64,000 nucleotides of DNA from Okamejei kenojei (Eukaryota), in contig CM069134.1 in assembly GCA_035221665.1 (NCBI GenBank), positions 86,862,001 through 86,926,000 on the forward strand, in the 5' to 3' direction. Below are positions 29,683 to 32,965 of the stretch, in pieces. The notes under the pieces are model-generated. The model was not told where the DNA came from. It did not search any database and saw nothing but the letters and a program-made list of their open reading frames with translations. How positions within the stretch are numbered: position 1 is the first letter of the stretch; the number at the start of each line of letters is the position of its first letter. The position numbers and the translations under genes were made by a program.

Positions 29683-30537
29683 CATTTTATTGTTTACTCC
29701 AGAACTGAAAGCAGCATTCTTTCCTCTGAATCTGATGGTCCTGAGTTCAAATCCTGGTATCAGCAATCATAAGATCATTCTTGTGTTGGGTGTAGAATGT
29801 TGTACAGTTGGAAGCGCTGCCTTCCAGATGAGACATTAAAATCTAAACCCCAAATAACAGCCAGCTGGATATAAAAGATCCTGTGGCCCATTTTTCGCAT
29901 AAGTGCACCTGAGTTTCATAAGTTCATAAGTTTTAGAAGCAGAATTAAGTCATTCGGCCATTCAATCATGGCTGATCTAACTTTCCCTCTCAACCCGATT
30001 CTCCTGCCTTCTCTGCATAACCCCTGACACACTTACTAATCAAGAATCTGTCAATCTGCACCTTAAAAATATCCAATGACTTGGCCTCCACAATCATCTG
30101 TGGCAATGAATTCCACAGATTCACCACTCTCAATATTCTGCCCAATAGTTAGGCCTTCATCAATAACAAATGAAAGTGTATTGCCTGATCAGCATCTCGT
30201 TGCTATTTGTGGGAGCTTGCTCTATGTAATTTGGCTGCTAGGTTTCTTTCATTGCAAATAGCTACATCAGCACTTTTTTGGGCATGAAGAGATTGGTAAA
30301 AGTGTAATGTACTCACAAACGTTTTCTATCGAGTGTCAAGGCTCTTACTATATTTGGTTATTTCTAAGGCTTTTCATACCCACTGATTGTGGAGATTGAC
30401 AATCCAGGGATATTGGGCATTGGTCACAATGGAGCCACTACGCTCGTTCAGGTTGCAGGCCTTTTTTCAATTGGTTCTGGGGACTCTAGACTCTCTCTCT
30501 TTCTGGGCTTTTGGCTTCTTCCCTGGATGCTCCACTG

Positions 30538-31730
30538 GGCACAAAGTGCTGGAGTAACTCAGCAGGTCAGGCAGCATCTCAGGAGATAGGTACCGTTTCG
30601 GGTCGAGACCCTTCTTCAGAGGGTTTATTTGAAAGAGTTCTTGGTGAAGTGATGGAACAGAACAGATAGGATCTCCTACCTCCAACTTTTTAGTTTGGTT
30701 AGGTTTAGAGATACAGCGCGGAAAAAAGCTCTTCAGCCCACCGAGTCCGTACCGACCACTGTTATATACACACCAGGGACAGTTTACGATTATACCAAGC
30801 CAATGAACCTACAAACCTCTACGTCTTTGAAGTGCGGGAGGAAACCAAAGATCTCGGAGAAAACCCACATGGTCACGGGGACCCGGGTCTCTGCTGCAAG
30901 CGCTGTAAGGCAGCAACTCTATGTCTGCGCCACGTGCCGCCCTTTCGTCTACAGTCTTCAGCCTCCCTTGTATGCTTCTGGGTTCCTTGTCCATCCTTTT
31001 GACCTCTCTCCATAGACTTCCTTTTGGGCTGTCACAAGGCCCTCAGCCTTACTGTTTATCCATCCAATACCGGAGCCCAGACACGCCTGCAGCCGCCCCC
31101 CTCAGCCCAACTAATCACCTCCCTAGACTGGAACAGTGATTGGCAACGTACCAAGGGATGTGTGTTGAGCAATCAAGATTCACGGGCATAAAACATCCCA
31201 CTGACAGGAATGAATGATGTGATTCAATTGTGGTAAAAAATCTAAAATATATTTATATTGCTTAAGATATTTTAACCCTGGAATCTAACACAGTGACTGG
31301 TATTTACATACCATTGCAATTAGTAAAAGTAAATATGAATCTCTGCAATTTGCCTGCTCCTTAGCTCAAATGTATTTTTCTTTGATTCATCTCATAATTG
31401 TTTTAGGCCTTAGTTATCTCCTATCTCTTGACCAATTATCCATTCTTTTCAGTTGATATATTCTCTGCTCTCTCTCAGTCCTCGTAGTCAATGAGCTATT
31501 TCTTTGGCTGTCTATCTCATTCAGTGTGATAACCTGTCCTCTTGGTTCAGGTTACTCAGTAGTCCAAATTGGTCTGTTTCCATATACCCTGTCTCATCTC
31601 TTCACCAAGAACTCTTTCAAAGCAACCCTCTAATGTCCGAAGAAGGGTCTTAACCTGAAATGTTACCTATCCATTTTCTGTAGAGATGCTGCCTGACCAG
31701 CTGAGTTACTCCAGCACTTTGTGTCCTTTT
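30538..31730. repeat. About 130-bp inverted repeats enclosing about 0.9 kb
   Basis: PLE arms extended by a further shared about 45 bp (agagggtt..tttgaaagagttcttggtgaag.gatg) at 30618-30660 and 31590-31631. Confidence 0.65.
30690..30945 (-). mobile_element. HE1-type V-SINE, internally deleted
   Basis: Head and tail motifs of HE1. Confidence 0.8.
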
Positions 31731-31800
31731 CTCTAATATTCTCTGTTCTACTAAAACAGTCATGAGCCCCCTAGGGAAGAAATACAATCCTAGTCCTGGT

Positions 31801-31930
31801 CTTCTTCTTCTTCTTGCACAGCCTAAAGTTGTAGGTCCTTGTTCTATTTGATCTATTTGTTTGTGCACGTCGGGTTATTTGCTTTAGTCGAAACAGGGTG
31901 GACCACGTGAAGGTTGCAATATCCCACCCC
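31801..31930 (-). mobile_element. 130-bp ribozyme-headed retroposon with (AAG)n tail
   Basis: Perfect 12-bp TSD CCTAGTCCTGGT at 31789-31800 and 31931-31942; 3' (aag)n tail; no pol III A/B boxes recognised. Confidence 0.85.
31876..31930 (-). ncRNA. Minimal HDV/CPEB3-like self-cleaving ribozyme fold
   Basis: GGGGUGG(P1) GA UAUUGC(P2) A ACC(P3) UUCACGU(L3) GGU(P3') CCACCCU(P1', G1.U wobble) GU UUCG A C UAA A GCAAAUA(P2'); catalytic-position C at 31887. Confidence 0.75.
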
Positions 31931-32479
31931 CCTAGTCCTGGTAAAAGTGAACAAAAATCACAACTTGTTCACTCATGGCCTTTTTCAAAGAAAAACTCAG
32001 CTTTACATCTTTCACAATCTTTCTGAAGAGTGGTCTCAGTTCTATTGTGGGAAATGCAGCAGTATATCTGTCACAGAAAGATACCACAAGCAAACAAAGC
32101 AATAGTGCCCCAATCATCTGATTAAGTGATATTGTTTGAGGATTTCACTTGTTCCCTCATCTGCAAACTATTGGAAGTTGCAGCAAAAGTAATTTAGTTT
32201 TGTAGTCCCACTCCACTGGTATTATCAGTCTTGGAAGGAAGTAATGGGCTTACGTTTGTCAGTGAAAAATACATCATGGTAACAAGAGGTATTCATGCAG
32301 TGAGGCAGGAAGAATGCATTCTCTGTTAACAAATCTGAGTCAATTCCTCATGCAAATCCTGAGAAAGCTGAGCTAAACTCTGGGCTCAAGGTGGGAATAT
32401 TTAAAGAGGTAAAAATAAAAAAGGCATTGAGATTCCCTCCTATCCCTTTTTTATTCCTAAAACAATCCTTAAATCGCAA

Positions 32480-32965
32480 GAGAAGACGCAGAGTTCTGGA
32501 GCAGCTCATTTGGTCAGACAGCATCTCAGCAGAACATTGATGAGCGTCCTTTTCGGTGGGACCCTTCTTCAGACTGTTTGTGAGGGGGTGGTGGGAAAGA
32601 AAGCTGGAAGAGAGGAAGGTCAGGACGAAGCCTGCAGGTAATAGGCCGACAGGTGAGGAGGGTTATTTGAAAGGCAGACGGTTGGACAAAGGTCAGAGAT
32701 GAAAAGACAGAAGGTGTAAGACAAACGGAGTTGTGAATTGTGAAGCTCGAGAAAAGGAATGTAGGTGGAAAGGGAAGGGGAGGGAAGAAATAGGTGCGAG
32801 TTCTGATGGCATATGGGGAAAGGGTGGGGGGAGAAGAGGAAGGTATGGAGGATAAGAAGGGAGAGGGGAAAGGTTATGTACTTTCCTAAATTGGAGAATT
32901 CAATGTTCATACTATTGGGTTGTAGGCTGCCCAAGTGGAATGTGAGATGTTGTCCCTCCAGTGTG
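32480..32965 (-). mobile_element. Penelope-like element 3' end with pseudo-LTR
   Basis: LE.QHL.F.LGSLQPN.MNIEFSN (end of the GIY-YIG ORF), pyrimidine-rich UTR, CTGAAGA..GAAA. Confidence 0.75.

Follow-up and report, generated by a model that had tools for sequence, protein, structure and literature searches.

A short retroposon family sharing both ends with a Vingi-type LINE and headed by a predicted minimal HDV-like ribozyme

Internal-deletion elements headed by a ribozyme are already known for R2 and for the L1Tc/ingi group (PMC3414825, PMC4035085). In Drosophila, the SIDEs of R2 and the R2/R1 hybrid SIDEs combine an HDV-like ribozyme as 5' end with the 3' end of the parent LINE and are moved in trans (PMC3414825), and both R2 SIDE and NARTc/SIDER heads cleave in vitro (PMC3414825, PMC4035085). 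Vingi LINEs, the sister group of Ingi, are compact single-ORF elements of APE-RT type without RNase H, and they spawn bipartite derivatives, e.g. Vingi-1_EE (PMC5786205, PMC13708176). As for the ribozymes themselves, the minimal HDV-like drz-Mtgn and theta ribozymes of metagenomes and phage tRNA loci are active without P4 (PMC10879173).

The locus described here lies in a 64,000-nt stretch of contig CM069134.1 of Okamejei kenojei (hereafter the window), where a 130-nt element on the minus strand (31801-31930) is bracketed by a perfect 12-bp direct repeat (31789-31800 and 31931-31942; read directly from the sequence). We document the structure of this element, the copy number of its family, the precision of the family's 5' ends, the ends held in common with a LINE, and the domains of that LINE. 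It is highly probable, in our view, that we are dealing with a Vingi-type LINE copy that has lost its interior and its autonomy, and that the predicted minimal HDV-like ribozyme at its head likely frees the RNA from longer host transcripts by a cut at the first nucleotide, G1.

A preliminary description of the window, made from its letters alone, had claimed a 12-bp target site duplication (TSD) around a minus-strand element ending in (AAG)n, and direct reading agrees, the tail being (AAG)5 (Table 1). The helices that it had proposed were recovered as well: P1 with seven pairs (31930-31924 with 31901-31895) opening on a G.U, a 3-bp P3, a 7-nt L3, GU after P1', a UUCG-containing loop in place of P4, and a C at 31887. 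P2 had been called imperfect in this copy, and so it is: relative to L004, a typical copy of the family, four substitutions (31921, 31883, 31878 and 31877) leave 4/7 family pairs in register. Deletions of 2 nt and of 8-10 nt near the 3' end are also apparent against L004. Being three P2 pairs short, the window copy is probably impaired, and its predicted ribozyme is probably weak or dead. The minimum free energy structure given by ViennaRNA, a program without pseudoknot modelling, includes P1 and P3, and the fold z-scores are uninformative (0.14 for the window copy, not significant, and 0.28).

Table 1. Coordinates of the element, its predicted ribozyme and its flanks in the window.
Feature	Position	Strand	Remarks
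TSD, copy upstream of the element	31931..31942	-	Adjoins G1; likewise in 46 of the 59 family copies whose TSD could be scored
Predicted minimal P4-less HDV-like ribozyme, 54 nt	31877..31930	-	Predicted cleavage 5' of G 31930
P1, 5' strand	31924..31930	-	Pairs with 31895-31901; first pair G.U
P2, 5' strand	31915..31921	-	Pairs with 31877-31883; 4/7 family pairs left in the window copy
P3 (3 bp) closing the 7-nt L3	31902..31914	-	L3 is that of the Rfam CPEB3 consensus
P1, 3' strand	31895..31901	-	
J1.1/4 GU and 5-nt loop instead of P4	31888..31894	-	P4 region 15-41 nt in relatives, 5 nt here (window family)
J4/2 with predicted catalytic C at 31887	31884..31887	-	C kept in 57/62 full-length copies and at the equivalent place of related LINE heads
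P2, 3' strand	31877..31883	-	Three substitutions in the window copy
Part contributed by the 5' UTR (first 80 nt) of the Vingi-type LINE	31851..31930	-	
Subfamily-specific 13-nt linker	31838..31850	-	Largely duplicates the preceding 8-9 nt (read directly); junction 22-mer with 365 exact matches
Part contributed by the LINE's final codons, its stop codon and its short 3' UTR	31816..31837	-	Partly deleted in the window copy
(AAG)5 tail	31801..31815	-	Common to mini-element and LINE
TSD, copy downstream of the tail	31789..31800	-	

The 5' junction of the insertion and its flank are bridged by contigs labelled as three different organisms (a fourth leaves the junction unresolved), which indicates that the insertion is common to relatives. 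A Pfam search with all 107 frames of at least 85 aa in the window returned no family and identified no host gene whose pre-mRNA the head might cut, as the preliminary description had suggested for intronic copies; short exons would escape such a search. Copies of a very abundant SINE-like repeat lie beside the element (31636-31726, 30537-30620 and 32485-32579), and there are contigs in which this repeat and the ribozyme head are linked, one on each strand. The repeat at 31636-31726 presumably resembles a ray or skate SINE.

The multicopy family that the preliminary description had supposed is present in the source genome (2.76 Gb). A DNA search with the element gave 2,598 candidates, of which all 40 that were scored match, and exact occurrences of a 25-nt head motif number at least 8,387, the reversed control having 0, so that the family cannot be put down to chance. 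Scaling the 8,387 by the 19/70 copies, picked by another motif, that keep the head motif exactly gives a rough family size of about 3 x 10^4. The window's own subfamily, defined by its junction type, is a minority within the family; the larger subfamilies (L276-L305) carry a G at position 32, making a U.G in P1, in 26/30 copies, along with other body variants.

The 5' ends were scored in a sample chosen against bias, namely 70 of the first 71 copies listed among the 365 junction matches, the window copy being excluded. Fifty-six of these 70 internal-motif copies align from G1 and 61 from positions 1-3, the remaining nine being truncated, which is the predicted pile-up at G1. A TSD, mostly of 10-12 bp, could be scored in 59 copies drawn from these 70 and from 30 head-motif copies; it adjoins G1 in 46 and is offset by 1-3 nt in 13, and 23 of the 46 have a G microhomology. 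Upstream of G1 the copies have no sequence in common. Base -1 of the 46 TSD-abutting copies is T in 23 and G in 2 (flanks: 30% T, 20% G), and since this base falls within the TSD, the excess of T represents target preference.

In 25 distinct rows drawn from the 30 best copies, 96% of cells are paired in P2, a helix of 7 bp, and 96-99% across P1-P3, and the first pair is G.U in 25/25; the P2 that is damaged in the window copy is perfect in most copies, as had been anticipated. The C at the catalytic position (57/62 copies) and the G.U opening pair (25/25 rows) are those of an HDV-like ribozyme. Every helix and core base is intact in 19/62 full-length copies of the window's subfamily and in 21/30 of those chosen through the head motif. 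The head differs between subfamilies by three changes, each of them neutral to the fold (J1/2 position 8, U-A to U.G at 32, and a variable J4/2 base at 45), and double-sided, compensatory changes number 0 in the 25 rows, the family being too uniform. Neither a single-copy element, nor heterogeneous 5' ends extending past G1, nor a consensus devoid of P2, which the preliminary description had named as sequence-level evidence against itself, was found.

The 3' end of the mini-element reads like the close of an ORF. A degenerate motif of such LINE-type 3' ends, drawn partly from Ingi/Vingi C-termini, occurs at 47 places in the genome, upstream of which the translation yields an RT with a Cys/His C-terminus; LINE and mini-element have the last ~44 nt and the tail in common. 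Extension of 35 LINE 3' copies toward the 5' end gave mostly truncations. From the other side, a 5' UTR motif with one mismatch allowed had 166 matches and led to copies in which the same head is followed by an ATG near nt 110 and by an APE domain. One of these LINEs, L118, is a full-length copy of 3,046 nt that starts at G1, has an 8-bp TSD and an ORF start at about nt 110, and it provides the LINE with both ends in common for which a search had been advised. Identity between the mini-element head and the first 80 nt of those LINE copies that continue into the ORF is 92-99%; several LINE copies start at positions 7-15 instead of G1.

By this comparison of sequences the mini-element is an internal-deletion derivative (SIDE) of the LINE, with bases 1-80 from the 5' UTR and the last ~44 from the 3' end, i.e. 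the two ends of one autonomous LINE joined by internal deletion and flanked by a TSD. The earlier picture of a SINE-like family that borrows a LINE is thus right about the LINE partner but wrong about mere borrowing, as both ends, the ribozyme included, are pieces of that LINE. Mini-elements account for 21/30 loci sampled via the 5' UTR motif, and among them the two ends are joined in at least three additional ways, which implies that the internal deletion arose repeatedly. Complementarity between the 5' and 3' ends (8 nt in the mini-element, 6-9 nt in a sister family) was considered as a feature and dropped, as it amounts to only 4 nt in L118 and is ambiguous in the sister family.

Pfam searches with pieces of decayed LINE copies returned APE, RT and a weak zf-RVT domain, and no RNase H was found by Pfam in five post-RT pieces, in four full-length homologs or in the listed domains of the best 120 homologs. 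These homologs are mostly APE-RT proteins of ~1,000 aa without RNase H, the nearest intact one having 1,019 aa and 75% identity. RNase H is present in the more distant metagenome elements L263 and L268, which form a separate branch in the RT tree. In the RT trees the RNase H-less elements form a clade (support 99/98), which joins the rows that bear RNase H, a CR1-like and an RTE-like row lying outside (support 99); the RTE row is a single fragment of ~143 aa, the CR1 row is one ORF, no named Vingi reference is included, and the labels Ingi, RTE and CR1 come partly from domain content. In a first RT tree, the RT of L121 came from an inserted CR1-like piece and that of L212 may not belong to its head. 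A PDB search retrieved L1, R2 and group II RTs only, and no clade information. The partner LINE matches the published definition of Vingi (compact single ORF, APE-RT, without RNase H; PMC13708176) and fits a Vingi-type, single-ORF element of ~3 kb, an assignment made by domain content and this definition, not by a named Vingi sequence. Of the partner types suggested beforehand, Ingi/Vingi or RTE, the former is retained as Vingi-like on the strength of the APE-RT layout, the lack of RNase H and the RT trees, and RTE is not. The LINE copies found are decayed and about 87-90% alike, which makes present activity doubtful.

The ribozyme head is often inserted in inverted orientation, directly against a truncated sense LINE body. 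This arrangement occurs at 9/46 LINE 3'-end loci (L035, L038, L039/L040, L047, L053, L065 and L077; seven independent events after one duplicate and one complex locus were dropped), at 7/9 sampled LINE-type heads (L090-L092, L096, L102, L106 and L109), and in the CPEB3-like family discussed below (L322 and L325). Such inverted heads resemble twin priming focused near the head, and suggest delivery of the 5' RNA to the second nick. Other rearranged loci include L076, where two or three mini-elements in both orientations are clustered within the 3' end of a LINE copy, and L119 (262-1581, minus strand), where frames that we take to be Gypsy-like gag/protease are inserted into a Vingi-type copy.

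Relatives of the LINE were taken from metagenome contigs (75 loci, 24 of which reach the ORF N-terminus). A strict HDV descriptor had six matches in the 543,960 bases of these loci, one elsewhere and five just upstream of the ORF, the latter representing 5/24 N-terminus loci and four distinct heads. The typical family copy L004 passes the same descriptor. The claimed nested order P1-P2-P3-L3-P3'-P1'-J1.1/4-P4-J4/2-P2' is accordingly present in the family type, the window copy having only 4/7 P2 pairs. Seven heads were added by a looser search or inspection (L259, L212, L201, L208, L235, L240 and L216), and 12/24 loci have no clear head (three too short, three Ingi-like or distant, three partial, three none). 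Pairing was compared in ten heads, with the window copy, L201 and L216 dropped as near-duplicates and L245 omitted. P2 is paired in 69/70 cells with 38 double changes, P3 in 30/30 with 15, and P1, which is off by one in L208 and L235, in 66/70 with 19. Helices pair with their own partner strands at 0.94-1.00 as against 0.57-0.79 across families, figures that are inflated by the selection of the P1 5' and P2 3' strands for best score, P3 being fixed by position. The covariation proposed as a check on the fold is therefore absent within the family (0 double changes) but evident between families, and the predicted HDV-like fold is conserved across distant Vingi-like LINEs.

How such copies might arise can be outlined as follows. 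A longer host RNA would provide the source transcript by read-through, and the predicted ribozyme would cut the element RNA free precisely at G1. Once released, this RNA would be copied in trans into new sites, by target-primed action of the LINE endonuclease/reverse transcriptase, whose protein may recognise the common 3' end and the (AAG)n tail, and insertion would leave the 8-13-bp duplications. An internal promoter starting at G1 would yield the same junctions, and some well-folded SIDER heads are inactive in vitro (PMC4035085). It could be, then, that the P4-less head folds without cleaving, that an internal RNA polymerase II promoter at G1 sets the 5' ends, and that the fold binds or protects for the LINE protein. 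Pr77 of the L1Tc/ingi clade is indeed both promoter and ribozyme (PMC8256844; PMC3383444), the dispersal of tens of thousands of copies points to a dependable source of transcription, the heads inserted inverted next to truncated LINE bodies suggest that the LINE protein handles 5' RNA, and a possible 2-bp hairpin, seen in the sequence and with ViennaRNA, could sequester the catalytic C. We nevertheless consider a non-cleaving head unlikely, given that the catalytic C, the G.U first pair and the L3 core are kept in the family and in distant relatives, and that P4-less HDV-like ribozymes do cleave (PMC10879173); a promoter role, moreover, is compatible with cleavage, so that only the "no cleavage" part competes.

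The SINE-like size, the TSDs and the simple-repeat tail would also suit a classical polymerase III SINE that has a head derived from a small RNA and has borrowed only a LINE tail. A head 92-99% identical to the first 80 nt of a LINE running into its ORF contradicts this, a simple regex finds no A or B box in the element, and Rfam gives no tRNA, 5S or 7SL match in the window stretch at E <= 10; this identity was rejected and is extremely improbable. Just as improbable is a pseudoknot that merely reflects functionless chance pairing in a G/C-rich 5' end, to which the near-zero fold z-scores and the lack of covariation within the family would lend themselves. Descriptor matches fall upstream of the ORF five times against once elsewhere, helices re-pair with different sequences in different families, and sister heads exceed the Rfam cut-off for CPEB3, all of which argues against chance.

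A ribozyme head of Vingi type, the reading that we prefer, bears on the mammalian CPEB3 ribozyme (RF00622), which has the same 7-nt L3 and the same GU after P1' as the window head. To this extent "CPEB3-like", as the preliminary description had called it, is apt, but the window head falls below the Rfam CPEB3 gathering threshold of 35 bits. No match to RF00622 was found for the window stretch at E <= 10, nor for the L004 and L118 heads at E <= 1; the best Rfam match of the window head, to RF02682 (19 bits, E 0.82, cut-off 44), spans exactly 31877-31930. The head of the metagenome LINE L244 scores 55.6 bits on RF00622 (L244 and L245, both metagenome contigs, represent a Vingi-like LINE). In the source genome, 42 of 59 candidates scored match RF00622, 30 of them above the cut-off with a best score of 66.8 bits, and they belong to repeat families other than the window's. 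One of these, L321 (347-3445; contig C14, from 7155346), is a near-complete APE-RT element with a CPEB3-like head and a 10-bp TSD adjoining G1, and its RT groups with that of L244 at 100 inside the RNase H-less clade. Counted by eye against the RF00622 consensus, L307 agrees at 44/46 of the first ribozyme positions, and L308 at 56/67 with the P4 stem included and a compensatory change in P2. As P2 and P4 vary freely among other heads, common descent is much likelier than convergence for the CPEB3-like heads. The groups above the cut-off also include L313, L318 and L319, and one consisting of L307, L308, L312, L314 and L317, which is nearest to the mammalian consensus and has no sense-strand ORF tied to it; L327 (444-790) is a bipartite derivative of the CPEB3-like family, of ~350 nt and with an 11-bp TSD.

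On these sequence comparisons, the CPEB3 ribozyme likely originates from a Vingi-like LINE head, where we infer the direction to be from LINE to gene. A Vingi relic, X12_LINE, exists in the human genome (PMC5753468). More broadly, it seems probable that Vingi elements as a rule start with an HDV-like ribozyme, that one lineage has led by shrinkage, in a vertebrate, to the 54-nt P4-less form with its tens of thousands of mini-copies, thousands of them intact, that another carries the CPEB3 sequence including P4, and that the CPEB3 ribozyme of mammals, which is linked to memory, was domesticated from the 5' end of a Vingi element.

In the accessible parts of the literature, PMC6765202 and PMC10919898 included, no published report was found of a Vingi ribozyme, of the mini-element family or of CPEB3 descending from a LINE; some of this may already be contained in Ruminski 2011, Kojima 2011, Webb 2009, Webb and Luptak 2011, in their supplements, in Repbase or Dfam, or in patents. 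The accessible portion of a 2026 preprint mentions neither Vingi nor shark nor skate, the strings "retrotranspos", "transpos" and "origin" do not occur in that of a paper on ancestral forms of CPEB3 (PMC8233481), and a review proposes ribozyme domestication, in the part available, in general terms only (PMC7761336). If the present interpretation is true, Vingi joins the ribozyme-bearing LINE clades, and an animal genome harbours a natural HDV-like ribozyme that lacks P4, in thousands of copies mutated in nature and open to assay, while the Vingi link provides a concrete and testable origin for the CPEB3 ribozyme. Vingi-1 of Anolis is under development for gene insertion with its native UTRs (PMC13708176), and template design for such insertion would be touched by a predicted self-cleaving 5' UTR, by a minimal cis-module of ~125 nt and by the tendency to 5' inversion.

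Compared with described systems, the mini-element is like the R2 SIDEs in being non-autonomous, with an HDV-like 5' head (predicted here) and the parent LINE's 3' end. Whereas R2 SIDEs occur in 28S rDNA only, are few, measure ~500 bp and have a large ribozyme, the mini-element is dispersed, measures 130-140 bp, numbers many thousands of copies, and has an APE-type parent and a 54-nt P4-less head. NARTc, RIME and SIDER of trypanosomatids (L1Tc/ingi, Pr77; PMC4035085) are likewise dispersed, bipartite derivatives, of the sister clade, with a ribozyme in the first ~77 nt; here, in contrast, the parent is a 3-kb LINE without RNase H, the host is a vertebrate and P4 is missing. The partner LINE shares the layout of Vingi elements and their production of bipartite derivatives, a likeness that holds by description and not by a named Vingi sequence. 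The head differs from the CPEB3 ribozyme, a single conserved intronic copy, in its P1, P2 and P3 sequences and in having no P4. With the drz-Mtgn and theta ribozymes it has in common the absence of P4, a short J1/2 and a catalytic C placed first in J4/2, and it differs from them in heading an animal retroposon rather than residing in a metagenome or at a phage tRNA locus.
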